Positions 14,368 through 35,743 of a stretch of DNA of 60,525 bases are shown piece by piece (position 1 is the stretch's first letter; the number at the start of each line of letters is the position of its first letter). The notes under the pieces were generated by a model. The model had not been told where the DNA came from, made no database searches, and was given only the letters and a program-made list of their open reading frames with translations. A program made the position numbers and the translations under genes. This stretch comes from Patescibacteria group bacterium (GTDB lineage: Bacteria; Patescibacteriota; Patescibacteriia; UBA9570; JAHJKD01). Where the stretch lies: the NCBI GenBank assembly GCA_018822435.1, contig JAHJKD010000021.1:1-60525 (forward strand), in the 5' to 3' direction.

Positions 14368-14374
14368 AATGCAA

Positions 14375-15058: not shown

Positions 15059-15059
15059 G

Positions 15060-16316: not shown

Positions 16317-16369
16317 TTTTAGATTTTATTGAGACGCGATAAATCGCGCCTTTACTTAAAATTAATTAT

Positions 16370-17302: not shown

Positions 17303-17306
17303 AGTA

Positions 17307-17765: not shown

Positions 17766-17779
17766 ATATTATTTAATCC

Positions 17780-17824: not shown

Positions 17825-17832
17825 TTACTTTA

Positions 17833-18558
17833 TTATTTATTATTATGTCTATCTGCGGCCAGGTTACAGGCTTTGAGGTAAGAATCAAATGATTCGCCGC
17901 CATCGCCCCACCAGCCGGCGAGTTTTTTATATGTAAGCTCTCCTTTGTCGGCGTAATAATTATTTACGTCAGTTATCTCCAATTCTCCGCGGCCTGAGGG
18001 CTTAAGATTTTTAATAACATCCCAGACCTGGGAATCATAAATATATAAGCCGATGACTGCCTGGTCTGTTTTTGGATTGGCCGGCTTTTCTTCTATGCTT
18101 TTAATTTTATCGCCTTGAATTTCAGCTACGCCGAATGACCTGGGATCCTGGACTTCTTTCAAAAAAACTTTAGCGCCTGTTTTTTGCTTTTTGAAATCTT
18201 CAACCGCGTCCTTAACGGGATCTTCGATCAAATTATCACCAAGCATTACCATGACCTCTTCGTGATCAGAAAAATCTTCACAAATTCCCAGAGCCTGGGC
18301 AATGCCGCCGGCTTCCTCTTGCACGCCATATGAAAACCGGGCACCGAAGTCTCCGCCCGACTTTAATAATTCTAAGAAATGTCCGGCATGGCCCTTGCCT
18401 GAGACGATCATTATGTCTTTAATGCCGGCATTAACCAATGTTTCTATGGGATAATAGATCATTGGCTTGTTATATATGGGCAGTAAATGCTTATTTGTGA
18501 CTTTGGTCAAGGGAAAAAGCCTTGAACCAGTTCCTCCGGCTAAAATTATTCCTTTCAT
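17833..18558 (-). CDS. rfbA: glucose-1-phosphate thymidylyltransferase (short form)
   Basis: 241 aa starting MKGIILAGGTGSRLFPLTKVTNKHLLPIYNKPMIYYPIE, the sugar-1-P nucleotidyltransferase signature. It lies in an rml context. Confidence 0.85.
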   Translation of the reverse strand: MKGIILAGGTGSRLFPLTKVTNKHLLPIYNKPMIYYPIETLVNAGIKDIMIVSGKGHAGHFLELLKSGGDFGARFSYGVQEEAGGIAQALGICEDFSDHEEVMVMLGDNLIEDPVKDAVEDFKKQKTGAKVFLKEVQDPRSFGVAEIQGDKIKSIEEKPANPKTDQAVIGLYIYDSQVWDVIKNLKPSGRGELEITDVNNYYADKGELTYKKLAGWWGDGGESFDSYLKACNLAADRHNNK

Positions 18559-18568: not shown

Positions 18569-18772
18569 TTATAGTTTTTTTTGCAATATTTGTAAACTGC
18601 CGAATATTAGGCCGCAAACCACAACTATCCACAATATAATATTTAAATTAAAAAAGTATTGAAAAAAGTTATTAGTCAGTCCATTAATCACTAAAAACAG
18701 CAAATAAAATATCAGGGAAATCGAAAATAAATCTTGGAAAATCCTGGTCATTTTTTGAATATTTTCTGCCAT
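18569..18772 (-). CDS. hypothetical small two-TM membrane protein
   Basis: 67-aa ORF with two hydrophobic helices. It overlaps the end of the upstream 460-aa ORF by 25 nt. Confidence 0.4.
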   Translation of the reverse strand: MAENIQKMTRIFQDLFSISLIFYLLFLVINGLTNNFFQYFFNLNIILWIVVVCGLIFGSLQILQKKL

Positions 18773-20130: not shown

Positions 20131-21569
20131 TGGGTAAATAAATTTTTAATATAAGGTAAGAGCGGGCGATAAAAAGTCGCCTTTGTCCCGGTAAATTTCA
20201 TCATTGTTTCCAGGGGACGGATATGCGGCGCTACAATGGAAAATTTTACTTTATCATTTTTCGTGAGCCTGAATTCAGATAAATCGAAATTCGATTTTAA
20301 GGTAACATTTTCACCCCTTATTTCAGGTTGATCATATTGATTTGTAGTCATGACTAAATTAACTTCACTTAATTGGGGCGGATGATTTCTGTTCTCAAGC
20401 AGGTGAAATAAATATTCCGCAAATAAACGGGATTCCCTATTTACAACTGCCACTCCGTCAGTTTGGATTGTAATATCATTTTTTGCAATAGCCAGCTTAT
20501 TGAAATATGTGGGAAAAATATTATGTTCGTATTTTTCTCTTTTTTTCCTAATCTCAACAGCCTGGTCATTTAGATACAAAGTTTGCTTACCTTCAACATG
20601 GACGGTTTCGTATTCAAGGTTATTACCAATAATATAAAAGGTTGTGTTAGTATTTTGGTCATCCATATCAATTTTACTTGTCAGGCCTAAATATTTTTGT
20701 TTTGTATCAAACGACATTAAGCGAGTGTCATTGGCCATCGGAATCTTGATCTCATATATCCCGGCCGCTAAATCTTTTTTTACATATTCAACCGTATTTT
20801 TAAAATCATATAACTCATACGTTGTTTTTTCAATAATTGAATTTCCAGAAAATAAAATAATTTCAAATGGCTCAATACCAGGCGTCTTGCCTAGGTCCTT
20901 ACAATGAAATCGCCAAGCCAGTTCTTCGCCGGGACCGATATATGTAAATATAGAGTGAGAGCCGCGCAAAGGGATTAAATAAGTTTCGTAATCTTCTTGG
21001 GCAAAATAATTAGGGAAATCTACAAATTGAAAATTATTAACGGCAAAATATGTATTTTGATAACCGAGATTACTGTTGAATTCTTCCAAAGAATTGTACT
21101 GGATATTTTTTTGCCATAAAGTAACACCGGAATCCTCATCAATAATATTGCTCCATTCTGATGATGAATTAATTTCTTCCAAGGCTTGGTTGTATACCAT
21201 GCGATTATCAAAACCATCATTGCTAAGCGGCATCGCCAAATTGAACACTGGTACTGGATTTTGAATATCTATTTCCATGTCAACGCTTTGCGGACGGTGC
21301 GGTGGAATGACAGAAATATAAGCCTGATCTTTAAACATGACCTGGAAATCTCCATCAACGGAAGTCTCTAAATTTTCCGGCGGCTTGACTGTTGAGACAT
21401 TATTGAATTCACGGGAGTAATCTTGCCTGTAAGTGACCTGGCCGGTGAAGAGCAAGAAATTATTTAAAAGAATAAGTACCAAGATACATAAAATCACTCT
21501 GAGAATAATTTTCACAGCCAGCTGATATTTTTCAAATGGAGTCCTATTCTCTGGTCTCATCGTGTTCAA
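20127..21569 (-). CDS. hypothetical N-terminally anchored extracytoplasmic protein (paralog B)
   Basis: 480 aa with a single N-terminal TM helix (VILCILVLILLNNFLLF). It has an ATGA-type 4-nt overlap with paralog A and shares blocks with it, e.g. TLWQKNIQYNSLEEFNSNLG versus ALYQKENKFETIGDFEKNLP. Confidence 0.6.
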   Translation of the reverse strand: MNTMRPENRTPFEKYQLAVKIILRVILCILVLILLNNFLLFTGQVTYRQDYSREFNNVSTVKPPENLETSVDGDFQVMFKDQAYISVIPPHRPQSVDMEIDIQNPVPVFNLAMPLSNDGFDNRMVYNQALEEINSSSEWSNIIDEDSGVTLWQKNIQYNSLEEFNSNLGYQNTYFAVNNFQFVDFPNYFAQEDYETYLIPLRGSHSIFTYIGPGEELAWRFHCKDLGKTPGIEPFEIILFSGNSIIEKTTYELYDFKNTVEYVKKDLAAGIYEIKIPMANDTRLMSFDTKQKYLGLTSKIDMDDQNTNTTFYIIGNNLEYETVHVEGKQTLYLNDQAVEIRKKREKYEHNIFPTYFNKLAIAKNDITIQTDGVAVVNRESRLFAEYLFHLLENRNHPPQLSEVNLVMTTNQYDQPEIRGENVTLKSNFDLSEFRLTKNDKVKFSIVAPHIRPLETMMKFTGTKATFYRPLLPYIKNLFTQ

Positions 21570-21945
21570 ATAAAATTAAATAGCTCATGCTAAAAATTAT
21601 TATTCCGGAAAATAATGCAATAATATATGAAATCCAACCAAGACCGATTAATTTAGCAAATATAATAAAGGCTCCGATGATGGCGTACGCACAGACCAGT
21701 ATCCAGGTCCAAATATTTATATCAGTATCTTTCTTTATGATCTCGGGTTTACTAAAAAAAACATAAATAGCGCCGCTAAGAATCAGGGGCACTAAAATAT
21801 AATTAATATTTATTTGGTCAAAAATTACGCCTGTGTAAAGATTCTCTAATAAGATCACAACCAGGTATAACAAAAAAATATCCTGAAAGAATTCAGAATT
21901 TAGATAGAGAAAGTAGTCCTTTTTTGTCCTTTGCAACGAGGCCAT
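21544..21945 (-). CDS. hypothetical polytopic membrane protein
   Basis: 133 aa with four hydrophobic helices. It is the first gene of a long minus-strand gene run (21945 down to 12537). Confidence 0.5.
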   Translation of the reverse strand: MASLQRTKKDYFLYLNSEFFQDIFLLYLVVILLENLYTGVIFDQININYILVPLILSGAIYVFFSKPEIIKKDTDINIWTWILVCAYAIIGAFIIFAKLIGLGWISYIIALFSGIIIFSMSYLILFEHDETRE

Positions 21946-22008: not shown

Positions 22009-22683
22009 ATGAAAACGGTCGTAATTATCCCGGCTTACAATGAAGAAAAGACCATCGGAACGGTCCTGGCAAACGTGAAAAATCATATTCCTGCTGAGAA
22101 TATTATTGTTATTGATGACGGCTCAAAGGACAGAACTCCCCAGATTGCTGACTCCCATGGTGTCCATGTATACACCCACAAATTAAATCGCGGCCTGGGC
22201 GGTGCTCTTGGCACAGGCCTGGAGGCCGGGAAATTACATGACGGCGACATCATCGTAACCATGGACGCGGATGAGCAACATGATCCGGCAGAAATAAAAA
22301 ACCTGATTGCACCAATAGAGCAAGAAAATGCGGATGTCGTTATCGGATCCAGGTTACTTAAAGGCGAAGGCATGCCCCTGACCAGAAAAGGCTTTAATTG
22401 GGTAGGAAACGTTATTACCTGGACTTTATTTGGAATCTGGACAACAGACAGCCAATCAGGTTTTCGCGCATTTTCTTATAAAGCTTGCGAACAAATCAAG
22501 ATCAGGACTAATAAAATGGAAGTTTCTTCTGAGATTATTAAAGAAATTAAAAGAAATAGATTAAGGTTTGAAGAAGTACCGATTAAAGCCATTTATACCC
22601 AATATTCCATGTCTAAAGGCCAGAACTTTTTTGAAGGCATAAAGACCGTAACAAAATTAGTTATTCTTAGATTTCGAAAATGA
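22009..22683 (+). CDS. GT2 glycosyltransferase, polyprenyl-phosphate sugar synthase-like (no TM tail)
   Basis: 224 aa with VIIPAYNEEKTIG, IVIDDGSKDRT and MDADEQHDP, a DPM1/GtrB-like catalytic domain. Confidence 0.85.
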   Translation: MKTVVIIPAYNEEKTIGTVLANVKNHIPAENIIVIDDGSKDRTPQIADSHGVHVYTHKLNRGLGGALGTGLEAGKLHDGDIIVTMDADEQHDPAEIKNLIAPIEQENADVVIGSRLLKGEGMPLTRKGFNWVGNVITWTLFGIWTTDSQSGFRAFSYKACEQIKIRTNKMEVSSEIIKEIKRNRLRFEEVPIKAIYTQYSMSKGQNFFEGIKTVTKLVILRFRK

Positions 22684-23006
22684 TCATTAAATTTTTAATA
22701 ATTTTATTTATTTTGTTTGCCCTATCCCGACTGATACTCAGGTTTAAGGACGGGTCGGTTGGCATATGGGGCTTTCTTCTCTGGGGGGCTCTTTGGATTA
22801 TAATAGGAATAGTAACTTTTCTGCCTCAAACAACTACGGTGGTAGCGAGCATTTTAGGTGTTGGACGTGGCGCAGACGTCGCGGTTTATATCTCTATTAT
22901 CCTCCTTTTTTACGCTGTATTCCGATTAGGAATCAAACAAGAAAATATTGAATCCCAAATCACAGAACTAGTGCGAAAAGACGCACTAAATAGTAAGAAG
23001 AAATGA
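22680..23006 (+). CDS. DUF2304-like small membrane protein
   Basis: 108 aa, three TM helices and a charged C-terminal helix. It overlaps the preceding GT2 by 4 nt, a pairing I recall as typical for DUF2304. Confidence 0.6.
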   Translation: MIIKFLIILFILFALSRLILRFKDGSVGIWGFLLWGALWIIIGIVTFLPQTTTVVASILGVGRGADVAVYISIILLFYAVFRLGIKQENIESQITELVRKDALNSKKK

Positions 23007-24124
23007 ACATTCTTTACTTAACAGAATTTTTTCCGGTGCGTAGCGAAGAAATCACCGGAGGCGTGGAAGCACGCTCCTTTTTTTTGGTTAAAGAACTTGA
23101 TAAACATAATAAATTTTTAATTATTTCTTCTCGCATTAAGGACCAGCCAGAACAAAGTTGTGAGTTTACACAAGTAAAAATTTTTCGATGCGGCAATGGA
23201 GGAGATTATTTGCATGACGGGGGTTTGTGGCAAAGATATAAATTTTTCAAAGCCGGATTAAAAAAAGCGAAAGAATTAGCGCCAGAAGTTGATATTATAG
23301 AGGCCTCGGGTTGGTTGGGTTATATAATTGCCATGCATCTTAAAAAAATTATAAAGAAACCATTTATTATTACTTATCATGAAGTCTGGATCGGCCAATG
23401 GAAAAATTTATTTGGAATATCCGGGAAAATCGGTGAATATTTTGAACGGAAAATATTAAAGCAAAATTGGAATAAAATTATTGCAGTAAGTGAACAAACT
23501 AAGCTGGCGCTAGAGAAGCAGGGAATTCCAGAGAATAAAATTAGCGTGATCCATAATGGCGTTGATAATAAAGAAATCTATTCAGCCGAAATAAAAAAAT
23601 ATGAAAAACCGACTGTCGTGGTTGTGTCCCGATTGGTTAAATATAAACGAGTTGCGGACGTAATTTCTGCTATAAAAATTCTAAATAATAAAGTTGATCT
23701 GAAAATTATCGGCAATGGGCCAGAGTTAAAAACGCTCAAAGAATCTGCTGAGAATCTTCCGGTGGAATTTTTTGGCCATATTAAATCACACGATGATTTA
23801 ATTAAAGAAATTAAGAAGTCACATATATTAATATTTCCGTCAGAGAAAGAAGGTTTTGGCATTGTTATTATCGAAGCAGCCAAATCTGGCACGCCTTTTA
23901 TCGTGTCTGACATTCCTGTATTCAAGGAAGTTACAAAGAATGGTAAAGGCGGCTTGATATATAAAGTCGGTGATTGTCAGGATTTGGCTGATAAAATTAA
24001 TAATCTTATAACAGATAAAAAGGTCTATCAAAATAAAGCGGAAGAAGCAAAAGAACTTTCTCAAGATTATAACTGGACCAAAATAGCGGATAAAATGGAG
24101 GAAGAATACAAAAAATGCGCATAG
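23003..24124 (+). CDS. GT4 glycosyltransferase
   Basis: 373 aa, GT-B fold. The E-x7-E region reads FPSEKEGFGIVIIEAAKSGTPFIVSD. Confidence 0.85.
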   Translation: MNILYLTEFFPVRSEEITGGVEARSFFLVKELDKHNKFLIISSRIKDQPEQSCEFTQVKIFRCGNGGDYLHDGGLWQRYKFFKAGLKKAKELAPEVDIIEASGWLGYIIAMHLKKIIKKPFIITYHEVWIGQWKNLFGISGKIGEYFERKILKQNWNKIIAVSEQTKLALEKQGIPENKISVIHNGVDNKEIYSAEIKKYEKPTVVVVSRLVKYKRVADVISAIKILNNKVDLKIIGNGPELKTLKESAENLPVEFFGHIKSHDDLIKEIKKSHILIFPSEKEGFGIVIIEAAKSGTPFIVSDIPVFKEVTKNGKGGLIYKVGDCQDLADKINNLITDKKVYQNKAEEAKELSQDYNWTKIADKMEEEYKKCA

Positions 24125-25227
24125 CCGTAATATCAGAAGTCTGGCCGCCAGCCATAGAAGGCGGGGCTGAAATCCATATCAAAGAAACATGCATCCGCAT
24201 CGCCGCAAGCGGCAATTTTGATTTTAATATTATTACCAGAAAATTAATTGATGCGAATGATGTTAAATTTACAAACTTAGGCCATGACGGAAAATTACTG
24301 ATTACCAGATGTGGATTAACGACAAAATTTTCAAATATTCTGGGCCGGCTCTGGTATATCCCCTCCTCTATTTTAAAAATTATTAAATATAAGCCTGATA
24401 TTATTCACGCTCATTCTTTTATTCCTGGAATAATTGCCAAGCTAACAAGAATTTTTATTAAAAAACCTATCTTACTGACAGTTCACGGCACGACTCAATT
24501 CACATCTCCAAAATCCATCAGAGCGAAAATAGAAAAATGGCTGGAAAAAATTATTACGACGAAGTTCGAATACAACCAGGAAATTTCTGTGGCGCAAAAT
24601 TTTTTAAAGTTGCCCAATAAAAATAAAGATATTGCGATTGTTCCCAATGGTGTGGATATCCAAATATTTGATGACGTCCAGGCCGGAAAATACGATAAAT
24701 TTACTCTTATTTTTGTTGGGCGCTTTGACTATGTAAAGGGATTGGATTTATTAATTGAAGCCATTAAGGAATTAAAAGACCAGGATTTACAATTGAATCT
24801 AATTGGTAATGGATATGAAGAGAAAAACTTGAAAGCTTTAGTTGAAAAAAATAAATTAGAAAATAAAATAAATTTTCTGGGAAGGTTATCTGGTGGTGAC
24901 CTGATTACTGAAATAAAAAAATCCCACGCATTAATATTACCTTCCCGATCGGAAGGATTTCCGTTGACAATTTTAGAGGCGTGGGCAGCCAAAATCCCTG
25001 TAATAGCGACTGATGTAGGAGAAAATTCGTACTTAATAACAAAAGGAAATGGATTTTTAATAAAGCCAAATAGTATCTCAGAAATACAAAGTGGAATCGT
25101 TAAAGCGGTTGAAAATAGTGACCGACTAGAAGAAATGGGGAAAAATGGCTATAATTTAGTAGTAGAAAAATTTTCCTGGGACAAGAGCGCCCAAAGCCTG
25201 AAAGTAATTTATGAACAAAGCATTTAG
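24115..25227 (+). CDS. GT4 glycosyltransferase
   Basis: 370 aa. The E-x7-E region reads PSRSEGFPLTILEAWAAKIPVIATDVGEN. Confidence 0.85.
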   Translation: MRIAVISEVWPPAIEGGAEIHIKETCIRIAASGNFDFNIITRKLIDANDVKFTNLGHDGKLLITRCGLTTKFSNILGRLWYIPSSILKIIKYKPDIIHAHSFIPGIIAKLTRIFIKKPILLTVHGTTQFTSPKSIRAKIEKWLEKIITTKFEYNQEISVAQNFLKLPNKNKDIAIVPNGVDIQIFDDVQAGKYDKFTLIFVGRFDYVKGLDLLIEAIKELKDQDLQLNLIGNGYEEKNLKALVEKNKLENKINFLGRLSGGDLITEIKKSHALILPSRSEGFPLTILEAWAAKIPVIATDVGENSYLITKGNGFLIKPNSISEIQSGIVKAVENSDRLEEMGKNGYNLVVEKFSWDKSAQSLKVIYEQSI

Positions 25228-26809
25228 AATTATTTTATTAATTTTAATCCCCTGCGTAGGATTGTTTTCAATCCTGTCTTTTAGCATAAATCCAGATAAA
25301 AATATTTTTTCCCGGGATGCACTAGCTCATTCGGCTGAAATTAAATTCATTTCTGAAACTGGTAATTATGATATTGATAAAAGAATATTATGGGAAGAAC
25401 AAAATAAATATCCTCCCATGATCTATATGATTGGAATTGGGGTTCTTCAAATTACTGGAATTTCTGATTTTTACATTCTTTCTCTTGTGATAAATTCAAT
25501 TTTTTATATATTGCTTCTTCTCCTCTTTTATATTTTAGCGAAAAAAGTGTTTAAAAACGAAGATGCCGCCCTCCTTAGCGTGTTAATCCTAAGTATCAGT
25601 AATTTTATTATATATCGGTTCACATTAATGCTACCGGAGAATTTTGCCATTATTCTCATGCTTTTATTTTTTATCATTTTTATTTCCGATAAGATGCCTA
25701 TTAAACTCAGGATTATTTTATGCAGTTTTATTTTGGCAGTGATCGGCATTACCAATATTTTGACTTTTTTTGTGGTTGCGGCTGGCTTAATACTATATAT
25801 TCCCGTCAAAATCTGGGAAAAAAAATATATAAACGTTCTAGGCTTAGGATCAATATTACTTGTCAGCGTGGTTGTGAACATTGTTTACCGTTTATTAAAT
25901 GGCTTCAACCTGTGGATGATATCTCTATTGCTTATTCCTTTTATCTTTGCAGTCTTGACGTCCGGGCTGGCATTTTTAGGCGGGAAGATAAAAAGAAAAA
26001 CTCTTTATCAAATTCTAGGCATTGCTGGCATTGTTATTTTATTAGGAATAATTTTGGTAATCACTTTTAATGAACCATTTATAATTAATAACCTCAGTGA
26101 TACACATGTGGATCCCACCTATTATAAAGAACATATTGTGAATAATATTAGATTGTTCTTTTTTGGAACTAGCGACAATCACATAAATATGAATGGCGTG
26201 ATTTCTATAGTTGTGCTGTTGGGAATATTTTTTATGTTTGTAAAAAGAAAATATGATCTGGCTATCTTTCTAATCATATTGTCGATAGGCTGGGTGACGA
26301 TGATATTTGCACCACTTTTTGGATTGGATCCCCTGCAGAACACGCCCCGAGCCATGATGTATATATCTATCTTTGCGGCGCTCTTTGCGGCCTATGGATT
26401 GGTTAATTTTAATTCTAAAAAGCTGGCCATAACAGCCCTGTTTTTTATCATGGTCACGTCTATCCCGAATGCGGTCGTGGCATCGAGCTACAATTCTTCC
26501 TTTTTTGTTCCCAAAGTAATCAAAGACTATCTGGCTATTCGGATTAATGACCAATTAATTTTAACAGATGACGTAACAGCAAAATCCCTATATATTTCCG
26601 GCCCGGACTTCAATCATATTATTAATACCCCGGCTGTAAAAAAAGATGATCTTCAGGATATGAATATAGATTTCTTTAAAGAAAATAATATCAATTTTAT
26701 TATCACTTCCCCTATTTATAAAGGGGGAGGATATAAAAATCTATTGGAAAAATATTTTAATGCCGTACTAGAAGAAGACGGTTACATTCTGTATATGATA
26801 AATAACTAG
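25211..26809 (+). CDS. polytopic membrane protein, GT-C-like (possible glycan polymerase or transferase)
   Basis: 532 aa with more than 10 TM helices, an acidic DALAH motif in the first loop and a C-terminal soluble domain of about 100 aa. The family assignment is tentative. Confidence 0.55.
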   Translation: MNKAFRIILLILIPCVGLFSILSFSINPDKNIFSRDALAHSAEIKFISETGNYDIDKRILWEEQNKYPPMIYMIGIGVLQITGISDFYILSLVINSIFYILLLLLFYILAKKVFKNEDAALLSVLILSISNFIIYRFTLMLPENFAIILMLLFFIIFISDKMPIKLRIILCSFILAVIGITNILTFFVVAAGLILYIPVKIWEKKYINVLGLGSILLVSVVVNIVYRLLNGFNLWMISLLLIPFIFAVLTSGLAFLGGKIKRKTLYQILGIAGIVILLGIILVITFNEPFIINNLSDTHVDPTYYKEHIVNNIRLFFFGTSDNHINMNGVISIVVLLGIFFMFVKRKYDLAIFLIILSIGWVTMIFAPLFGLDPLQNTPRAMMYISIFAALFAAYGLVNFNSKKLAITALFFIMVTSIPNAVVASSYNSSFFVPKVIKDYLAIRINDQLILTDDVTAKSLYISGPDFNHIINTPAVKKDDLQDMNIDFFKENNINFIITSPIYKGGGYKNLLEKYFNAVLEEDGYILYMINN

Positions 26810-26811: not shown

Positions 26812-27666
26812 TCACCTCCAGAAATCAAGGCTTCTTCCGATCATTCCCTCTAATTGTTGAATATCTTCCTTATAAAAATCTTGTAATAATTCTCTTTGTT
26901 CCGGCCTTAAGGTCGGTTTTGATTTTGTTATTTTTGAAAGCGGCGTTTCAATCAGTCCGTAATATGCTTTACGAACAATGCGCCTACCTGCCAACTTGCG
27001 TCCGGTTTCGGTTTTTACGAATCTGGTAATAACATTTATATGAAATTTATTATACCAACCAATATTTTTAACATTGGTGGGATTAATGATTTTATTCGCA
27101 GTTTTCGGCACAAACTTATCTTCAACTTCCAAAAATTTGTATATATATTGGATAAATCTAACTGGATCTTTTTTAATGTCTTCAAAAATCAGAACCTGAA
27201 CCTGGTCTCGACCAAATAATTCATAATATAATGCAAGCGTATCCGCATAAAGGCTTTCGGTGAGAAATTCGTTATCTTTTTCTTTGACAAGTTGGGCAAG
27301 ATCCCGATTTTTTTCCTGCTTACTCCACTGACGATGTAAAAAATTCGATGTCGCCCGATCGATGGGATTGCGGAGACAGACAATGATCTTAACATTTCCT
27401 AATTCTTTTTTAATCCGCCTGGCTGCTTTTTCATTAAAATAGCCGGAAGAATATTCTCCTGCCTTAGCACCAGGTTTGCAGTGGTCAAAAAATCGATTGT
27501 AATAATAATCCAGGCCCCGGGAATAATGATGATCATCATAAAAAAAATAAGACTCTTTGTTTTTAGAGAGGCAAAGTTGCGGATGCTCACTCAGGCATTC
27601 ATAGGTCCAGGTAGTGGCGCATTTTCTTGTGCCCACGCCCATAAAATCAAGTTTTTTCGGAATCAT
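26812..27666 (-). CDS. sulfotransferase-domain protein (PAPS-dependent type)
   Basis: 284 aa. 5'-phosphosulfate-binding-like loop GVGTRKCATTW and 3'-phosphate-binding-like block VCLRNPIDRATS. Confidence 0.8.
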   Translation of the reverse strand: MIPKKLDFMGVGTRKCATTWTYECLSEHPQLCLSKNKESYFFYDDHHYSRGLDYYYNRFFDHCKPGAKAGEYSSGYFNEKAARRIKKELGNVKIIVCLRNPIDRATSNFLHRQWSKQEKNRDLAQLVKEKDNEFLTESLYADTLALYYELFGRDQVQVLIFEDIKKDPVRFIQYIYKFLEVEDKFVPKTANKIINPTNVKNIGWYNKFHINVITRFVKTETGRKLAGRRIVRKAYYGLIETPLSKITKSKPTLRPEQRELLQDFYKEDIQQLEGMIGRSLDFWR

Positions 27667-27684
27667 TAATAATTTATTAATTTT

Positions 27685-28548
27685 TTATTTCCAGCAATCC
27701 AGGTTCCTGCCAATTAATTTTTCCATTTGCTCTATATCATCTTTATAATATTGGTTTAGATGCTCTCTTGTTTCCGGTTTAATATCAGGTAAAGATTTAG
27801 ACATCTTAGCCACCGGCTTTTCTATTATATTATAATACATTTTCCTGGCATATGCCGAACGATAGAGCCGCATGCCAAAAGGACCCTTTTTTATCCGGTC
27901 AATCACGCCAAAATGGAATACTTTATAGATTCGAGACGTTTTTACGTTAGTAGGATTAATGACCTGCTCGGCTGACGGAGGAACAAAATTATCATTCACG
28001 CCTAAAAACTTAAAAATAGATTGCTGAAAAGCAACTGGATCATTTTTAATGTCCTCGTAGATTAAAACTTTGATTTTTTCCCGGCCGAATAACTCATAAT
28101 AATATTTTAATCTTTTTGCATATAAGCTGTCTTCAAGAATTTGATTTGTATCAGCTTTAATTAAATCATCAAAATCTTTTAAATCATGATGCGAATCAAA
28201 TTTGGCATGATAAAAAAAAGACATGGACCGATCAATCGGTTTTCTCAAGCAAACTAGTATTTTTATATCCGGAAAATTTTCTTTGAACCTGGCTGCACAC
28301 TTATCGTTGAAATAATCAGTCGTGAACTCCCCTTTTATTTGATTATCCTTACATTGATTATAATAAGTTGAGAAATAATAATCTAAACCCTTATTATAAT
28401 TTTCATCATGGCTAAAAAAACCTGTGTCTTTTATATTAGACATGCAAATATCCGGATGCTCGGCCAGGCATTCGTAAATCCAGGTGGTAGCGCATTTGGT
28501 CGCTCCGATGCCGACAAAATCCAATTTTTTATTGTTTGAACGCGTCAT
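27685..28548 (-). CDS. sulfotransferase-domain protein, tandem paralog
   Basis: 287 aa with GIGATKCATTW and VCLRKPIDRSMS. It aligns with the preceding ORF along its whole length. Confidence 0.8.
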   Translation of the reverse strand: MTRSNNKKLDFVGIGATKCATTWIYECLAEHPDICMSNIKDTGFFSHDENYNKGLDYYFSTYYNQCKDNQIKGEFTTDYFNDKCAARFKENFPDIKILVCLRKPIDRSMSFFYHAKFDSHHDLKDFDDLIKADTNQILEDSLYAKRLKYYYELFGREKIKVLIYEDIKNDPVAFQQSIFKFLGVNDNFVPPSAEQVINPTNVKTSRIYKVFHFGVIDRIKKGPFGMRLYRSAYARKMYYNIIEKPVAKMSKSLPDIKPETREHLNQYYKDDIEQMEKLIGRNLDCWK

Positions 28549-29698
28549 TATAAAAAGGCATTAATTTATTTGTAATTATGTAATCCCAGTTATGATCTTC
28601 TACGATCCTATCCCATGGTTTCAGTTTTAATGTATCAAAATTTTGAAGGGCATATTTCATAGCCCGAATAATATCTTTTTCCTCCACTTTTATCAACAAG
28701 TTTTTCATCTCATCATCAAACCAAGTAATAAACTCGGAAGCGCCGGGTGAGTTCGAAACAATTGTCGGCTTATTACATGACAGGCATTCGATTGTTTTTA
28801 ACGGAGGTTGATTTTCAAAAGGATCGTAGGCCAGACAGATATCCGCACTATTTATATAATCTGGGATTTTTTCAAATGGGACAGCCTCATGGAATAATAT
28901 TTTTTTTAAATTGTTCTCCTGAACATATTTAATTAAATTTTCCCTGTCATCACCCTGGCCAATAAATATCAAGAAAGAGTCAGACTGCCCCTGATTGATG
29001 TCCTTAAAGGAATCAATTATAATTTTTAGATTTCTAGCCTTGCCGTGCGTCCCAATATAAAGGAATATTCTGCACTTACAATCAATATTATATTCTTTTT
29101 GGAGAAGATTTGACGGCTTAGCAAAAAACTTTTCCTGATTGACGCCAATAGGAAGAATTTTAATATTTTTTATTTTCTTAAAATTTTTCTGAATTAATTT
29201 CGGAAAAATCTCATCTTTTAATACTTCCGCAATAATACTGACCTGATCAGCAAATAAACTGGCCATCACGGTTTGCCACCGGCCAATAACATGCACCAGC
29301 CCCCGGCTTATTGGTCCGGTCTTAATGTCATAAAATGATTTAATAATCTTACTTGGAAAAAATATCTTTTGCCAAATTATTAATAAAGCAACGGCTGGTG
29401 AAGGCTGGATGTAATGAATAATTGTCTTTTTATTATCAGCTTTAGATTTGTTTTTAATAATCTTCCTGGCATCAATAAAAAACCTCCAGATACTTCCCAA
29501 TGAGATGCTATCATCTGCCCTAGTATGAAAAACTTTTACGTTTTCTTCTATTTGTCCCTGATCATCTTGTTGCTTTGCACAGATAACATTTATCTCTAAA
29601 TCGTCTTTTTTAGACAAAGCATCAACATAACCAAACATTTCTGTGGCTTTTACATCGGGGAAGTAAATTGGCTGGATAATTATTACTCTTTCTATCAT
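28529..29698 (-). CDS. GT-B fold (GT4-like) glycosyltransferase
   Basis: 389 aa. The C-terminal half resembles a GT4 donor-binding domain (FLYIGTHGKARN...IFIGQGDD...CNKPTIVSNSPGASEFI), but the E-x7-E motif is degenerate. Confidence 0.65.
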   Translation of the reverse strand: MIERVIIIQPIYFPDVKATEMFGYVDALSKKDDLEINVICAKQQDDQGQIEENVKVFHTRADDSISLGSIWRFFIDARKIIKNKSKADNKKTIIHYIQPSPAVALLIIWQKIFFPSKIIKSFYDIKTGPISRGLVHVIGRWQTVMASLFADQVSIIAEVLKDEIFPKLIQKNFKKIKNIKILPIGVNQEKFFAKPSNLLQKEYNIDCKCRIFLYIGTHGKARNLKIIIDSFKDINQGQSDSFLIFIGQGDDRENLIKYVQENNLKKILFHEAVPFEKIPDYINSADICLAYDPFENQPPLKTIECLSCNKPTIVSNSPGASEFITWFDDEMKNLLIKVEEKDIIRAMKYALQNFDTLKLKPWDRIVEDHNWDYIITNKLMPFYNDAFKQ

Positions 29699-29699
29699 A

Positions 29700-29727
29700 T
29701 TGATTTTTTAGATACAACAGATATAAT
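29700..29727 (+). promoter_or_regulatory. sigma70-like promoter candidate close to the ATG of the third sulfotransferase
   Basis: TTGATT (29700-29705), a 16-nt spacer, then TATAAT (29722-27). The ATG at 29739 is only 11 nt after the -10 box. Confidence 0.35.
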
Positions 29728-29738
29728 AATAGAAATAT

Positions 29739-30650
29739 ATGAATAATTCAAGCCCTATACTGATTACAGGCGGGCCGCGTTCCGGATCAACCTGGGCTGG
29801 TAAAATTATCAGCAAATCCCCTGAAGTCGGTTATATCCATGAACCGTTTAACTTAAAATGCCACCCGGGCATATGTAATTGCCCGATTGACAAGTGGTTT
29901 TTTTATGTTAATGAAATTAATGAACATGAATTTTCAGAATGTTTTAACAGGACCTTGCATTATGAATACAATACAAGAGCCCAATTAAGCCGTAGTTTGA
30001 CCGTAGGAGCCAAACAATGGCTAGATTGGCAATATTATCGAATAACCAATAAGAGACCTCTTATTAAAGATCCGATTGCTATATTTTCGACAGAATGGCT
30101 GGTAAAAAATTTCAACATGAAACCGGTTATATTAATTAGACATCCGGCGGCTTTTATTAGCAGCCGAAAAAAACTAAATTGGGCTTTTCCGGCAAAAGAT
30201 ATATTATCCCAACCAGAGTTGATGAAAAAATTAGGGCCATTTAAAGAAGAGATCGAGAAACAGGCTGTCCAGAAACACGACATAATCGACCAAGGCATAC
30301 TAACCTGGAACCTGATGTATTATTTTATCAACGAACTAAAAGAGAAGCATGATGAATGGCTATTTATCCGATATGAAGATCTGGCCAAAGATCCTTTGAA
30401 AAAATATGCCGAAATATTTACATATCTTGATTTGGATTTTTCTAAAAAAATTAAAAATTTTATTTTGGATACAACCAGGGGAAAAGAGGTGGAAGTGGCC
30501 GTTGAAGACAGGCATGCCATTAAATTAAATACGGCCAAGGCTTTGAATAACTGGAAAAAGAGATTGTCTGAACAAGAAATTGAAAAAATAAAAATAGGGA
30601 CTGATCCCTATTGGAAATATTTTTACAAAGAGTCTGATTGGACGGACTAA
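29739..30650 (+). CDS. sulfotransferase family protein (third, divergent type)
   Basis: 303 aa. P-loop-like GGPRSGSTW near the N-terminus and ILIRHPAAFISS as a 3'-PB-like block. Confidence 0.7.
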   Translation: MNNSSPILITGGPRSGSTWAGKIISKSPEVGYIHEPFNLKCHPGICNCPIDKWFFYVNEINEHEFSECFNRTLHYEYNTRAQLSRSLTVGAKQWLDWQYYRITNKRPLIKDPIAIFSTEWLVKNFNMKPVILIRHPAAFISSRKKLNWAFPAKDILSQPELMKKLGPFKEEIEKQAVQKHDIIDQGILTWNLMYYFINELKEKHDEWLFIRYEDLAKDPLKKYAEIFTYLDLDFSKKIKNFILDTTRGKEVEVAVEDRHAIKLNTAKALNNWKKRLSEQEIEKIKIGTDPYWKYFYKESDWTD

Positions 30651-31405
30651 AAACCGGTTAAGTAATTTTTAATCTTAATCGGCATCGCAGAAAGTAATAT
30701 TGATTTATATTTATTTTTCTCCTTAATATTATATTTTTTATAAATGTCCCTTTTTTCTTTTTCCAATTTTATGAATTCACGCCGGCTTTTAGGAGTGCTT
30801 ACACCGCCTATTTTGAAGGTTGCGAACGGCATTCCTAAGTATTGGAAAGAAATTTTATTTTTTACGGCTCGGGCCAGCCATTCGTAATCGGCGGCTACGG
30901 GATAGTCCGGATCAAAGACGCCAATTTTTTTAAAAACATCGCAATGAACAAAGAAGCTTTGCTGGGTTATGCCCGGTTGAAAATAATTTTCAGGGGATTT
31001 GTTTTCCTGCTTTATCAATTTTTTTTCACGGCTTGATTTTTCAATAATTATATCTCCATAATAAATTTCCGCATTATTATTTATATTCTCCTTTACTTTG
31101 CTCAATACTTGATCATTGCAGAACCTATCTCCACAATTAAGGAAAAATATATATTGGCCAGCCGCACGTTTGATTGCCCTGTTCATCGCATCGTAAATGC
31201 CATTATCTGCCTCACTAACCATGATATCGATATTGTCTTTATATCTTTTAATGATAGGGACAGTTGCATCAGTTGAATTTCCGTCAATAATAATAAACTC
31301 AAAATTATTATTATCCTGATTGATCAAACTTTTAATCGTGGAAGCGATCTCTTCCTCACCATTATAAACAACCGTAATAATGCTGAAAAATGGTTGGGTA
31401 GGCAT
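30647..31405 (-). CDS. GT2 glycosyltransferase
   Basis: 252 aa with FSIITVVYNGEEEI, IIIDGNSTD and an FFLNCGD (DxD-like) motif. Confidence 0.85.
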   Translation of the reverse strand: MPTQPFFSIITVVYNGEEEIASTIKSLINQDNNNFEFIIIDGNSTDATVPIIKRYKDNIDIMVSEADNGIYDAMNRAIKRAAGQYIFFLNCGDRFCNDQVLSKVKENINNNAEIYYGDIIIEKSSREKKLIKQENKSPENYFQPGITQQSFFVHCDVFKKIGVFDPDYPVAADYEWLARAVKNKISFQYLGMPFATFKIGGVSTPKSRREFIKLEKEKRDIYKKYNIKEKNKYKSILLSAMPIKIKNYLTGF

Positions 31406-32853
31406 TAATATTTGGCCATTAATAATATTACTATCGCAACGGCCAGTAGTAGCAGATTAAGGACAACAACTTTTTTCAAATAGATAAATATATTTTGATG
31501 GACTGACTTTAGGGACTTCACCAATGGCTGCCAATTAAATATAACCACGCGCGATACTAATTGAGCTAAAATAATCCCAACTATGCCCCAGCGTCCGAGG
31601 GTGAGGGCGACCAATACCAGGAAAATGATGGCCGATGCAATATAATGTTTATAATAAATTATTTTATTGGTGGTGTAATATAACTGGATTCTGGTGAAAT
31701 TATGCATGTCATAAAACCAGGCTACCATCATTAATGCCCAAATAGCAACAGGGACGAAGGCAACATTGGCTTTAATTAAAACTAAAAGCGGTTCAATAAA
31801 TATTCCGGTCAGACACGCGGCCAAACTGAAAATTAACAAGCCGATATTCGTTTGCCGATTAGTAAGAGCGGCAAGTTTTTCCAATTTTCCTTGAGCCCGT
31901 AATTTGGAAAAAACGGGAATATGACTAACATATGGAGCAAGAGCCAACTGATAAATAACTGTGATAAGGCGCAAAGAAAATAAATAGGCAGCCACATCCG
32001 GCGTGGCGCCGAATTGAGCAAAGATGATGCCACTGCCCTGGGATACGCCTCGATTTGATAAATCACTAAGACCGGAACGCCAGGCCGGAGCCCAAACTGA
32101 CCGAAATAATTTCTTATCAAGGGAAAAGGGCTTAAAGGCGCGGTATTTTTTATTCTCTAATTTTAATAAATAGAATCTCATTATAATCATGGCAATAATA
32201 CTGGCTAACTGTTGGATTATAATTAAATATAAAATACTTGGCATATAAAGTAAGATGCCAATGGATAATATTAGAGAAATTACCTGAGAAAAAAATAAAC
32301 AACGATTGACTAAAGCCACCTTATTCATGCCAATTAGGACGCTCTGATATTTTTTTCCAAAGAATATAAGAGTAAAGCCGCAAAAAAGAATAATCCAGGC
32401 TATCCATAAATCTGAACCTCCGCCCGCCAATGTAACTGTCCGATATACAAATATTGTCCCAAAAATGGCCAGGGATATGAAGACGATTCCGGTTAAGATC
32501 AAATATATGGATCCGATAGTCCCATATAACTTTTGCATCAAGGGCCAATTGGCCGTGCCATCGCCGTGCTTTTTAGGGTCATTGCCTTCAAAATGAGTAA
32601 TGTCCTTTGCTCCGGCCATGGTATAGGAAACCATGCGGGAGAAACTGGAGAAAAATCCAAAATCGAGAAGTTGAGTCAGAGCGGTAATGGAATAAAATAA
32701 ATACCAGACGGCTATTTCGTCGGCTTCAAATACGCGTAAAAGAAAAGGGGCTAAAATTAAAAATTTTGAAATACCCATGAGGCTCTGGGCCCATTGGGTG
32801 ATTGTGGGTGAACTCCAAATTAATTTAGCCCATTTCTTAACCATAGTTTTCAT
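31405..32853 (-). CDS. oligosaccharide flippase (Wzx/MOP superfamily)
   Basis: 482 aa with about 12 TM helices and an N-terminal region typical of polysaccharide-biosynthesis/flippase proteins. Confidence 0.65.
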   Translation of the reverse strand: MKTMVKKWAKLIWSSPTITQWAQSLMGISKFLILAPFLLRVFEADEIAVWYLFYSITALTQLLDFGFFSSFSRMVSYTMAGAKDITHFEGNDPKKHGDGTANWPLMQKLYGTIGSIYLILTGIVFISLAIFGTIFVYRTVTLAGGGSDLWIAWIILFCGFTLIFFGKKYQSVLIGMNKVALVNRCLFFSQVISLILSIGILLYMPSILYLIIIQQLASIIAMIIMRFYLLKLENKKYRAFKPFSLDKKLFRSVWAPAWRSGLSDLSNRGVSQGSGIIFAQFGATPDVAAYLFSLRLITVIYQLALAPYVSHIPVFSKLRAQGKLEKLAALTNRQTNIGLLIFSLAACLTGIFIEPLLVLIKANVAFVPVAIWALMMVAWFYDMHNFTRIQLYYTTNKIIYYKHYIASAIIFLVLVALTLGRWGIVGIILAQLVSRVVIFNWQPLVKSLKSVHQNIFIYLKKVVVLNLLLLAVAIVILLMAKY

Positions 32854-33763
32854 ATACTTTAGTCAATCCATCTCTAAGCTTTGTGGCTGCTTTCCAGCCT
32901 AAGTTATTTATTTTTGTTACATCTAATAATTTTCTCTCCGTGCCGTCCGGTTTAGAAGTGTTCCATTTAATATCGCCCGAATAACCAACAATTTTTTGAA
33001 TTAATTCGGCTAATTCTTTAATAGATAAATCTTCCCCTGTTCCAATATTGACATGAGTTTTTAAATCAGGATAATTAATATTCTTCATTAAAAATATACA
33101 GGCATTAGCTAAATCATCGCTATAGAGAAATTCACGCTTAGGTTTGCCTGTACCCCATACTTCAACAAAGAGTTTATTCTCTATTTTTGCTTCATGAAAT
33201 TTTCTGATCAAAGCCGGGATAACATGTGAAGTGCTTAAATCAAAATTATCATTTAGTCCATATAAATTAGTGGGCATCACAGAGATGTAATTAGTTCCAT
33301 ATTGAGAATTAAAAGCCGCACATGTTTTTAGTCCGGCAATTTTTGCAACTGCATAGGGCTCATTCGTGTGTTCTAGCTCACCAGTTAATAAATATTCCTC
33401 TTTAATCGGCTGCGGACAATTTTTCGGATAAATACAGCTTGATCCCAAGAATAAAAGTTTTTTAACTTTGTTATTATAACTGGAATTTATTATATTGCTT
33501 TGAATCTGTATATTATCATTTATAAAATCCGCTCTGAATTCATCATTAGCCTGAATTCCCCCAACTTTAGCAGCCGCCAAGAAAACATACTCAGGCTTTT
33601 CTTCTTTAAAAAAATCACTCGTTGCTTGTTGATTTCTTAAATCTAATTCATCAAAAGATTTACCGATCAAATTATTATAGCCTTCTTTTTCTAAACGACT
33701 CCAGATAGCTGATCCGACCAAGCCCCGGTGGCCGGCAATATATATTTTTGAATTTTTATCCAT
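32837..33763 (-). CDS. fcl: GDP-L-fucose synthase
   Basis: It has [23 protein letters not shown] (YxxxK) and a typical Fcl/WcaG C-terminus. I prefer the start [11 protein letters not shown] at 33763. The track start at 33862 would run 107 nt into gmd. Confidence 0.9.
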
Positions 33764-34793
33764 TGGTTTGCTTAAGATCAAATTCACACATTTCTCTAAC
33801 AAGATCATTAAAAGAAATCTTTGGTTTCCAGCCCAGTTCTTTTTTAGCCTTAGAAAAATCACCGATTAATTCTTCTACTTCAGCCGGTCGAAAATATTTT
33901 TCATCTATTTCAATTATTGTTTTACCTGTTTTCTTATCAATGCCTGATTCTTCCGTGCCCTTTCCCTGCCATTCGAGGTCAATATCAAAATGGGGAGCAG
34001 CAATTTCGCAGAATTCTCTTACGGAATGATTTTCTCCGGTCGCGATCACATAATCCCGGGGCTTGTCCTGTTGGAGCATGAGCCACATGGCTTCGACGTA
34101 ATCTTGGGCATGGCCCCAGTCTCGCTTGGCTTCCAGATTACCTAACAATATTTTTTCATCAAGGCCGGCTTTTATCCGGGCCAAGCCCCTGGTTATTTTT
34201 CTGGTCACAAAAGTCTCGCCTCGTCGCGGAGATTCATGGTTGAACAAAATTCCGTTGGTAGTGAAAATATCAAATGATTCTCTGTAATTAACAGTAATCC
34301 AATAAGCAAAAACTTTAGCGCACCCATACGGGCTGCGGGGGTAAAAAGGAGTTTTTTCTGTTTGAGGAGCTTCTTGTGCTTTGCCAAACATCTCCGATGA
34401 GGAGGCCTGATAATATCGGACCGGCTTCTTCTTATTTAGCTCTTTAATTGCATCTAATAATTTAACGGCTCCGATAGCATCAACATCAGTTGTATATTCA
34501 GGCAGTTCAAAGCTCACTTTTACATGTGATTGGGCACCTAAATTATAAACTTCATCTGGTTCAACTTCAAATATAATATTTCTTAAGCTAGAAGAATCGG
34601 TTAGATCCCCGTAGTGCAGGAACAAATTTACCCCATTAATGTTTGGATCATTATGCAGATGATCAATTCGACCGGTATTAAACGTACTGGCCCGGCGGAT
34701 AATGCCATGGACTTCATATCCTTTATCCAATAAAAGTTCCGCCAGATAAGAACCATCCTGACCGGTAATTCCAGTAATTAAAGCCTTTTTCAT
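33756..34793 (-). CDS. gmd: GDP-mannose 4,6-dehydratase
   Basis: 345 aa with [31 protein letters not shown] and [17 protein letters not shown]. Confidence 0.95.
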
Positions 34794-35743
34794 ATTTTGT
34801 AATATTCTTTATACCAGGAGATAAATTTATTTATGCCTGATTGAATATCTGTTTTTGGATCATAGCCAAGTAACTTTTTGGCTTTATCTATATTAGCGTA
34901 TGTTTCTAAAACATCCCCTGGCTGCATGGGCAGCATTTCTTTTTTAGCCTCTTGTCCTAATTCTTTTTCTATGGTCTGAATAAAATCTAATAAAGCGACT
35001 GGCTTATTATTTCCCAAATTAATAATTTCATATGGGAAGGGATTGTCTATGCATTTAATAACACCGGCAACGATGTCGTCGATATAAGTAAAGTCTCTTC
35101 TTAAGTCTCCGTTGTTGAAAACTTTGATTGTCTTGCCAGAGAGAATGTCTTTAGTGAATGAGAAATAGGCCATATCAGGCCGGCCCATAGGACCGTAAAC
35201 CGTAAAAAAGCGCAATCCGGTCATATTAATGCCATACAAGTGGTGATAAGTATAGGCCATAAGTTCGTTCGCCTTTTTTGTAGCCGCATAGAGAGAAATC
35301 GGGTTATCAACATTATCTGTCTCAGAAAAAGGAATCTTTTTATTCATACCGTAAACAGATGAAGAAGAGGCATACACAACATCTTTTACTTCAAAATGGC
35401 GGGCCGCTTCAAATATGTTTAATGTTCCGGCTAGATTTGATTTTTCATAAGCATGCGGATTTTCCAATGAGTAACGAACTCCGGCTTGGGCTCCTAAATG
35501 GCAGATCTTATCAATTCTTTCGTTCTTAAAAATCTCTTCTAATTCATCATAATTAGAAAAATCTGTACGGTATATTTTATAATTAGTATTTTTCTCTAAA
35601 AGCTTAATCCGGTCTTCTTTAAGACTGGGATCATAATAATCGTTAAAATTATCTAGGCCCGCCACATTATCTCCCCTTTCGAGCAAAACCTTGGAAATAT
35701 AAAAACCAATAAAACCAGCGCCCCCAGTTACTAAAACATTCAT
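34790..35743 (-). CDS. NAD-dependent epimerase, UDP-glucuronate 4-epimerase-like SDR
   Basis: 317 aa with [30 protein letters not shown] and [10 protein letters not shown], resembling the CapI/WbnF-type epimerases. Confidence 0.75.

Follow-up and report, generated by a model that had tools for sequence, protein, structure and literature searches.

The contig JAHJKD010000021.1 of the Patescibacteria group bacterium assembly GCA_018822435.1, analyzed here in its entirety as a single window of 60,525 bp (60.5 kb), encodes three sulfotransferases of the kind that use 3'-phosphoadenosine-5'-phosphosulfate (PAPS), set among genes for glycan synthesis. Two of them, ST-A (284 aa; 26812-27666, minus strand) and ST-B (287 aa; 27685-28548, minus strand), lie side by side, while ST-C (303 aa; 29739-30650, plus strand) is transcribed from the strand opposite to that of its neighbors. 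The original prediction, made from the sequence alone, had recognized two tandem paralogs and a divergent third enzyme by their short motifs, and all three open reading frames (ORFs) were recovered where it had placed them, with their motifs present: GVGTRKCATTW and VCLRNPIDRATS in ST-A, GIGATKCATTW and VCLRKPIDRSMS in ST-B, and GGPRSGSTW and ILIRHPAAFISS in ST-C. It had also placed a family 4 glycosyltransferase (GT4) gene among them, and this gene occupies 28529-29698 on the minus strand, between ST-B and ST-C (Glycos_transf_1, 58.3 bits; Glyco_trans_1_4, 49.6 bits). The minus-strand genes form a GT4-ST-B-ST-A unit that GT4 opens and ST-A closes, with a 20-bp overlap between ST-B and GT4 and a gap of 18 bp between ST-A and ST-B.

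Each of the three proteins scored above the curated gathering cut-offs of both Pfam models proposed as a check, Sulfotransfer_1 (PF00685, 22 bits) and Sulfotransfer_3 (PF13469, 27 bits). Specifically, ST-A, ST-B, and ST-C reached 76.9, 55.7, and 47.3 bits for the former and 43.5, 40.8, and 48.7 bits for the latter, matches that are well past chance; no NCBIfam model names any of them. ST-A and ST-B, which are 49% identical over their full length and are each other's closest relative, are diverged tandem paralogs. ST-C, a Sulfotransfer_3-type enzyme, is remote from both, as proposed: BLASTP returned local matches only, and an hhalign comparison of the two family alignments gave a probability of 96.9%, with IRHPAAF of ST-C placed on LRNPIDRA of ST-A. 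Because transmembrane (TM) segments are predicted in none of the three, we regard them as soluble cytoplasmic PAPS-type sulfotransferases of two families. The same locus is present in the metagenome-assembled genome (MAG) GCA_018825215.1 and in the Logan assembly of SRR2540949. Recent transfer of the sulfotransferase genes was also considered, and GC content (34-37%, against a window mean of 38%) gives no sign of it.

The leading sequence match of ST-A in the PDB is 3rnl (E 1.7e-23), a bacterial sulfotransferase from Alicyclobacillus, followed at about 1e-10 by the heparan sulfate 3-O-sulfotransferases 3-OST-1 and 3-OST-5 and by the N-sulfotransferase domain of NDST1. The 5'-phosphosulfate-binding (5'-PSB) loop of 3-OST-1 bound to 3'-phosphoadenosine-5'-phosphate (PAP) has the sequence GVRKGGT, on which GTRKCATTW of ST-A aligns such that R67-K68 fall on R14-K15, and its 3'-phosphate-binding (3'-PB) segment, LRDPSERVLS, aligns with LRNPIDRATS. 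Across an alignment of 34 members of the ST-A family, G12, H28, R99, P101, S107, and W283 are invariant, and the residues of the 5'-PSB loop are fully or almost fully conserved both there and in the ST-C family. The 3'-phosphate motif R-x7-S corresponds to R99/S107 in ST-A and to R134/S142 in ST-C, each pair being invariant within its family, and R134 of ST-C pairs with R99 of ST-A in the hhalign comparison. A K-E-x-[HY]-F-F segment, common in the ST-A family, presumably supplies the catalytic base; its K37-E38 in ST-A align with the K-E of 3rnl and, after a register shift of one residue, with E90 of 3-OST-1.

The predicted fold agrees with these alignments. The AlphaFold2 model of ST-A (predicted local distance difference test, pLDDT, 91.6) found as its best Foldseek matches 3rnl and the complex of 3-OST-1 with PAP and a heptasaccharide (3uan), with a TM-score of 0.79 normalized to the target and about 0.7 normalized to the query, and for the ST-A and ST-C models alike the best 50 matches in the PDB (E≤0.001) were all sulfotransferases, mostly PAP-bound. 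The motifs had been taken for the 5'-phosphosulfate and 3'-phosphate contacts of a PAPS site, and motifs and fold do align with PAP-bound enzymes; the residues were assigned to the pocket by alignment to those structures and not from contacts measured in the models. By sequence, motifs, and fold, then, ST-A, ST-B, and ST-C are PAPS-type sulfotransferases of two families, with PAPS binding and sulfate transfer as predicted activities.

Although the 3-OST and NDST enzymes, together with 3rnl, are the best sequence and fold matches of ST-A and ST-B, and the 5'-PSB, 3'-PB, and presumed catalytic-base segments align, the two bacterial proteins are not counted as animal-type 3-OSTs, since at the acceptor site His92 and Asp95 of 3-OST-1 are replaced by Tyr40 and Tyr43 in ST-A. 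Further, they are soluble bacterial proteins with about 20% identity to the animal enzymes, and heparan sulfate is certainly not their acceptor. Their place is instead in a bacterial sister family together with 3rnl and the first sulfotransferase of the xss cluster of Synechocystis, to which we return below. The ST-A superfamily is large: counting representatives of clusters at 50% identity, 29,609 proteins are related to ST-A at E≤1e-3, of which 12,246 reach E≤1e-10 and 389 reach E≤1e-30, with identities to ST-A of at most 45% among the relatives listed.

For ST-C, a PDB search with the single sequence gave no significant match, whereas the profile of its family gave meaningful scores to sulfotransferases only. 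The 382 homologs, which are 40-46% identical to ST-C, include proteins from cyanobacteria, Desulfobacteraceae, and a Hermodarchaeota MAG, and the 29 aligned members share an invariant set of residues (G11, R14, S15, G16, T18, W19, E35, K110, D111, P112, R134, H135, P136, and S142), of which E35 would be the catalytic base. The family consensus GshRSGSTW aligns with PKSGTTW of the cytosolic SULTs and RTGTT of Stf1; this alignment of the PSB loop holds for the cytosolic SULTs and Stf1 only, and that of the K[DN]P motif was confirmed for Stf1. In Foldseek searches of the PDB, the AlphaFold2 model of ST-C (pLDDT 89.8) had as neighbors the tyrosylprotein sulfotransferases TPST1 and TPST2, CurM-ST, the olefin synthase sulfotransferase OLS-ST, mycobacterial Stf1, and the cytosolic SULTs, all at TM-scores of 0.5-0.6, with TPST2 as the top match (E 1.7e-6); the profile E-value to TPST1 was 0.02. 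The PRSGST, KDP, and R-x7-S motifs of ST-C are presumably of the TPST-like kind.

The genes upstream of GT4 on the minus strand give these enzymes their setting. Reading in the direction of transcription, the order is SDR, Gmd, Fcl, Wzx-like, GT2, a terminator-like hairpin, GT4, ST-B, and ST-A, with ST-C antisense between GT2 and GT4. The first gene (34790-35743) encodes an extended short-chain dehydrogenase/reductase (SDR) that resembles UDP-glucuronate 4-epimerase, in line with what had been claimed for this locus. Its best PDB sequence match is 5u4q (391 bits; deposited as a dTDP-glucose 4,6-dehydratase), the second best being 6zl6/6zla (192 bits), which we take to be the B. cereus UDP-GlcA 4-epimerase structures of Iacovino 2020; no NCBIfam model matches it at cut-off. 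It is followed by GDP-mannose 4,6-dehydratase (Gmd; 33756-34793; TIGR01472, 575 bits, cut-off 415) and GDP-L-fucose synthase (Fcl; 32837-33862; E 1.6e-103 to the E. coli GDP-fucose synthetase 1bsv), whose true start is probably internal, for a product of about 308 aa, as it is called in public assemblies. Next are a polytopic 482-aa Wzx-like O-unit flippase (31405-32853; NF041503 "O-unit flippase-like protein," 210 bits, cut-off 300), for which there is no Pfam match, and a WcaE-like family 2 glycosyltransferase (GT2; 30647-31405; Glycos_transf_2, 86 bits; TIGR04009 wcaE, 102 bits, below cut-off).

Two short sequence features may divide this region into transcription units. The terminator-like hairpin (30593-30612, minus strand), an 8-bp stem followed by the T-run TTTATTTTTT and a pattern match only, lies 35 nt past the GT2 stop codon and, on the other strand, within the 3' end of the ST-C gene; if real, it splits an SDR-Gmd-Fcl-Wzx-GT2 operon from the GT4-ST-B-ST-A unit. 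The 40-bp divergent intergenic region between GT4 and ST-C (29699-29738) holds sigma-70-like hexamers on both strands (TTGATT-16-TATAAT at 29700-27 on the plus strand and TTGAAT-17-TATTAT at 29751-23 on the minus strand), which are consensus matches only, in AT-rich DNA.

We consider it reasonably probable that this locus assembles an oligosaccharide on a lipid carrier, to which the three soluble PAPS-dependent sulfotransferases add sulfate in the cytoplasm before it is exported. In the scheme we propose, Gmd and Fcl would supply GDP-L-fucose, the SDR possibly a 4-epimerised (uronic) sugar, and the rml genes 10-15 kb away possibly dTDP-rhamnose, and the GT4 and GT2 enzymes would assemble the unit on a polyprenyl carrier. 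ST-A and ST-B, co-transcribed with GT4, and ST-C, from its own promoter, would each sulfate a different hydroxyl or residue from PAPS; most likely, the positions or residues that ST-A and ST-B modify differ from each other and from the one modified by ST-C. The Wzx-like protein would then flip the sulfated unit across the membrane, where a polytopic membrane enzyme, for which a DUF6541 protein with 14 TM segments and the PMT_2-type GT-C glycosyltransferases are candidates, may polymerize it or join it to a surface acceptor. What we infer in this scheme is which substrate is used, in what order the steps run, how many sulfates each unit carries, and that PAPS is supplied by genes located elsewhere in the genome.

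A sulfated glycan is the best reading of the locus because the identity of the enzymes by sequence, motif, and fold coincides with a glycan-cluster setting here and with polysaccharide loci, often with PAPS genes, around their relatives elsewhere, and the locus is a real and probably functional one of this kind. As to composition, the likeliest product is a sulfated heteroglycan containing 6-deoxyhexose, which is favored because the operon clearly provides for GDP-L-fucose, whereas a uronate would lack its dehydrogenase in the window. The uronic acid of the original prediction is thus possible and not established: the SDR resembles UDP-GlcA 4-epimerase, but no UDP-glucose dehydrogenase was found in the window, the sugar that the operon itself provides for is GDP-L-fucose, and dTDP-L-rhamnose is provided for 10-15 kb away.

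Several observations weigh against this reading. First, at the presumed catalytic base, ST-B has K40-D41, with Asp41 replacing the usual Glu of K-E-x-[HY]-F-F; several other members of the ST-A family have no acidic residue at this position. Second, the substrate class of ST-C is not fixed, as its nearest structures are tyrosylprotein and polyketide or lipid sulfotransferases at moderate TM-scores, and the evidence does not tie all three enzymes to one glycan. Third, no priming phosphoglycosyltransferase was found in the window, whose sole Glycos_transf_4 protein is MraY, nor was there a clear Wzy (no O-antigen-polymerase or ligase domain), polysaccharide co-polymerase (PCP), or outer membrane polysaccharide export protein (OPX) among its large ORFs; the polymerase candidates in the window are polytopic proteins that fall in no recognized family. 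Finally, the 60.5-kb contig holds no ATP sulfurylase, adenosine 5'-phosphosulfate (APS) kinase, CysQ, or sulfate transporter gene, and bacteria of the candidate phyla radiation (CPR), which are generally episymbionts, have metabolically reduced genomes.

One alternative is that the enzymes are real sulfotransferases that serve several singly sulfated products, ST-A and ST-B acting on the glycan of their own GT4, and ST-C on another glycan, a glycolipid, or a protein tyrosine in the manner of TPST or RaxST. That the glycan is multiply sulfated, as had been claimed from the three genes, is plausible but unproven, given that the window encodes at least three flippase-like proteins and about 13 glycosyltransferases and that ST-C, which lies on the other strand and has a promoter-like site of its own, is transcribed separately from ST-A and ST-B, while a terminator-like hairpin stands between the flanking units. 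The best structural neighbors of ST-C (TPST2/TPST1, CurM-ST, and Stf1), together with motifs that we take to be TPST-like, point the same way. However, the TM-scores to TPST are just 0.5-0.6, ST-C sits between the GT2 and GT4 genes of one cluster, and no peptide-substrate or RaxABC-like genes adjoin it. Further, in each of the three unrelated genomes in which homologs of ST-C could be viewed in contig context (3/3 loci), they lie within polysaccharide clusters that include Gmd/epimerase-type SDRs and GT2 and GT4 genes, and one of them shares an operon with CysQ and Sat-CysC. A non-glycan role for ST-C is disfavored because of this context, and we regard the separate-product explanation as a whole as unlikely. 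A conserved pairing of sulfotransferase and glycosyltransferase was also sought around ST-C; we claim no such module because the GT2 beside ST-C and those beside its homologs share only about 30% identity, which is generic GT2 similarity.

The absence of PAPS synthesis genes from the window, which had been noted at the outset, held up in searches with Pfam on the large ORFs, motif regular expressions, and phmmer with CysD, CysNC, CysC, Sat-CysC, and CysQ queries. One consequence could be that the three genes, though intact, have no PAPS of their own and are either idle passengers in a glycan cassette spread by horizontal exchange or dependent on PAPS from the host cell. The reduced, episymbiotic nature of CPR bacteria would suit this explanation, as would the many relatives that keep PAPS genes directly beside their sulfotransferases, and a study of a Vibrio capsule describes the co-location of PAPS and sulfotransferase genes as the hallmark of sulfated-polysaccharide clusters (PMC11641403). 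Yet none of the three ORFs is truncated, the residues for binding and presumed catalysis are conserved in them, ST-A and ST-B resemble a retained tandem duplication, and the identical locus recurs in several independent assemblies, for which reasons gene decay is disfavored; the GC content near the window mean argues in the same direction.

The genomic surroundings of the family also bear on this point. A scan with an ST-A family alignment over one genome per GTDB species returned 50 loci, of which 22 were from CPR bacteria (Saccharibacteria, Kaiser-, Magasanik-, Yonath-, Wolfe-, Moran-, Woese-, Falkow-, and Nealsonbacteria, Parcubacteria, and Kazan) and three from DPANN archaea, with the remainder from Planctomycetia, proteobacteria, cyanobacteria, Bacteroidota, and others; because the search patterns derived from the close relatives of ST-A, the CPR share is to be read as prominence and not as a measured enrichment. 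Sulfate-activation genes (CysD, CysN-CysC, Sat-CysC, CysC, CysH, or CysQ) lay within 10 kb in 9 of the 50 loci. Since the other 41 likewise lack PAPS genes within that distance, the absence of such genes from a neighborhood tells little, and several CPR and DPANN genomes clearly encode PAPS synthesis. On this evidence we judge idle or host-supplied genes to be a distinctly improbable account, and cytoplasmic sulfation by functional enzymes continues to be the reading we prefer.

Where PAPS genes do adjoin homologs of the sulfotransferases (loci L003, L006, L007, L011, L013, L017, L027, L031, L032, and L054), they take several forms. In Saccharibacteria (L006; CAYNAD010000006.1, 1054-11745), CysD and a CysN-CysC fusion accompany four near-full-length genes of the ST-A family and two short matches. 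In Magasanikiibacteriota (L007; WJJZ01000006.1, 4967-19639), CysC, a CysH-like reductase, and CysQ stand with three sulfotransferases and one weak match, along with two UDP-sugar dehydrogenases, a flippase, GT2, and GT4; the 209-aa PAPS_reduct protein there was considered as a CysD and proved CysH-like instead. In Nealsonbacteria (L031), CysQ lies directly upstream of the sulfotransferase, with a Sat-CysC fusion as well; Sat-CysC fusions also occur in L017, L027, and L032, a CysC near the ST-A relative in L013, and matches to the CysN-CysC query in L003. Using hidden Markov models (HMMs) of both families, arrays were additionally found in a Xenococcaceae cyanobacterium (L024; three sulfotransferases and one weak match) and in L021 (two and two weak), with pairs in several others. 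The sulfotransferase-array design of the window recurs in CPR genomes, and both families are elsewhere recurrently linked to glycan and PAPS genes.

One of these loci holds a gene of separate interest. A Nanoarchaeota MAG (L011; JBMCRE010000003.1, 13415-14728) encodes, 2.5 kb from an ST-A homolog, a 437-aa CysQ-CysC fusion in which a CysQ-type 3'(2'),5'-bisphosphate nucleotidase domain is combined with an APS kinase domain, so that the steps of PAPS making and PAP recycling are joined in one protein.

Among characterized systems, the closest is the xss cluster for synechan, a genetically characterized sulfated exopolysaccharide encoded on plasmid pSYSM of Synechocystis sp. PCC 6803 (Maeda et al. 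2021, PMC8205485). Both clusters are rich in glycosyltransferases and combine a Wzx flippase, or in the window a Wzx-like protein, with sulfotransferases of two distinct subfamilies. ST-A is 28% identical over its full length (E 2e-32) to the first xss sulfotransferase (xssA, judging by gene order), and ST-C shows faint collinear similarity to the second. In the scheme proposed for synechan, the lipid-linked repeat unit is sulfated in the cytoplasm and then flipped by Wzx (PMC8205485), and by analogy cytoplasmic sulfation followed by Wzx-type flipping and extracytoplasmic transfer or polymerization would be the best-supported order of events here. The two differ in that xss has two sulfotransferases and the window three, that the window operon includes fucose-synthesis genes, and that the window comes from a CPR host and is known from its genes alone; counterparts of PCP/OPX and of the XssQ/R/S regulators were absent among the Pfam matches of the window's large ORFs.

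A second comparison is offered by the capsule locus of Vibrio sp. KMM 8419, which has three sulfotransferases with rmlABCD nearby and sulfated L-rhamnose in its solved structure (PMC11641403). There, as in the window, three sulfotransferase genes are spread through a polysaccharide locus close to rml genes, but the Vibrio locus has its own cysDNC and ABC/Kps export, whereas the window has Wzx-type flippases and no PAPS genes; of the hallmark of PAPS genes plus sulfotransferases described in that study (PMC11641403), the window carries one half. Nearer in lineage are the CPR and DPANN loci described above (L006, L007, L031, and L011), which, like the window, are known from genes alone. They share the ST-A family at 31-41% identity and, in L006 and L007, arrays of three to five near-full-length sulfotransferases, and differ in having sulfate-activation genes beside them.

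The original prediction had called sulfated bacterial glycans uncommon. Synechan (PMC8205485) and the sulfated capsules of marine Vibrio and Cobetia (PMC11641403, PMC11766843) are nevertheless characterized examples, and the 12,246 relatives of ST-A at E≤1e-10 also argue otherwise. In the open-access literature, we found nothing that links sulfotransferases with the biology of CPR/Patescibacteria. The locus is a known kind of system not described before in the CPR group, and its product is probably a sulfated, fucose-containing surface glycan. Cells of the CPR are found attached to other cells, and very little has been learned about the chemistry of their surfaces. An active locus would give this lineage a coat of sulfated, fucose-containing polyanion. 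Such a coat would matter for the recognition of hosts, the resistance to phages, and the binding of metals, and it would lengthen the short list of prokaryotes known for sulfated polysaccharides. The missing PAPS genes raise the question of metabolic dependence on the host.

The related arrays and PAPS cassettes suggest that many CPR and DPANN relatives may do likewise. More speculatively, we put forward that sulfated surface glycans are a widespread and unreported trait of CPR and DPANN lineages, made by a family related to 3-OST and to the first xss enzyme that is prominent in these lineages, is often multiplied into tandem arrays, and is paired with dedicated PAPS cassettes that include the CysQ-CysC fusion; that PAPS in the present organism is made elsewhere in the genome or derived from the host; and that a polyanionic, fucose-rich coat could mediate host attachment. 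We offer this broader proposal tentatively and regard it as somewhat less likely than not. For biotechnology, the predicted enzymes would be compact, soluble, and divergent carbohydrate sulfotransferases.

A group of genes at the far end of the window had been invoked in interpreting the glycan. An archaeosortase-like cassette was claimed and is indeed present: an ArtC-like gene of the exosortase/archaeosortase family (56065-57099, plus strand; best NCBIfam model archaeosortase C, 62 bits, cut-off 100) is flanked by three PEF-CTERM-type beta-helix proteins (53386-54879, 57143-58498, and 58519-59832, all on the minus strand). These secreted proteins share a signal peptide and a C-terminal G-V-P-E-F-T motif, TM helix, and basic tail, and two of the three have "choice-of-anchor Q" domains. 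With two PMT_2-type GT-C enzymes in the window as well, the sulfated glycan could be imagined as an N- or O-glycan of the PEF-CTERM proteins that the ArtC-like sortase processes. The idea that the glycan decorates the sorted proteins found no footing, however: the sortase genes form a separate group about 23-29 kb from the sulfotransferases, glycan and phospho-alcohol genes of unrelated function lie in the interval, and no evidence ties the one group to the other. The accompanying analogy with sulfated haloarchaeal glycans finds no support in a bacterium of the CPR that makes peptidoglycan (MraY, MurA, and Ddl) and in which no match to an STT3/AglB-type oligosaccharyltransferase was found by Pfam among the window's large ORFs. 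We consider this explanation very improbable and keep to an exported surface glycan.

A parallel to this layout exists in the synechan cluster, which carries a gene annotated as "cyanoexosortase A system-associated protein" (pSYSM, NC_005229, 52552-52992; L057, 17553-17993). Because the gene lies inside the xss cluster, sulfated-glycan and exosortase-system genes are neighbors there too, a point that counts somewhat in favor of a connection in the window.

In this bacterium with its small genome, about two thirds of the contig is given to glycan synthesis, with about 13 glycosyltransferases, three flippase-like proteins, two PMT_2 GT-C enzymes, rml, gmd, and fcl. A plus-strand unit (22009-26809) converges on ST-A, stopping 3 bp short of it, and comprises a GT2 resembling polyprenyl-phosphate-sugar synthases (22009-22683; NF058614 PpgS, 146 bits, and AglJ, 111 bits, both below cut-off), a DUF2304 protein, two GT4 enzymes (23003-24124 and 24115-25227), and the 14-TM DUF6541 membrane protein (25211-26809), which has no sequence relative in the PDB. 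The rmlABCD genes for dTDP-L-rhamnose occupy 12537-18558, 10-15 kb from the operon, and two more Polysacc_synt flippases and the two PMT_2 GT-C enzymes are found further off. Between the rml genes and the glycan unit, 18748-21945 encodes a pair of neighboring membrane proteins of 460 and 480 aa, each with a single TM pass, that belong to no Pfam or NCBIfam family and are distantly paralogous, with 20% identity across about 450 aa (E 2e-9), adjoined by a 133-aa protein with four TM segments.

A further cassette (45913-51552) contains a nucleotidyltransferase, an Fe-ADH_2 protein resembling glycerol-1-phosphate dehydrogenase, two CDP-alcohol phosphatidyltransferases, a small kinase-like ORF, and a 530-aa protein of the alkaline-phosphatase superfamily (Phosphodiest, 124 bits, with weak sulfatase-like C-terminal matches), which suggests a phospho-alcohol modification pathway of the teichoic-acid-like or lipid head-group type. 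Neither tRNA genes nor Rfam elements were detected in the window. The gene at 1013-2065 was considered as a WecA-like priming transferase, and NCBIfam identifies it as MraY. In addition to MraY, MurA, and Ddl, the window encodes ribosomal protein L9 and CTP synthase (PyrG), the closest named relatives of which, at about 66-73% identity, come from Patescibacteria, Parcubacteria, Kerfeldbacteria, and Magasanikbacteria MAGs.

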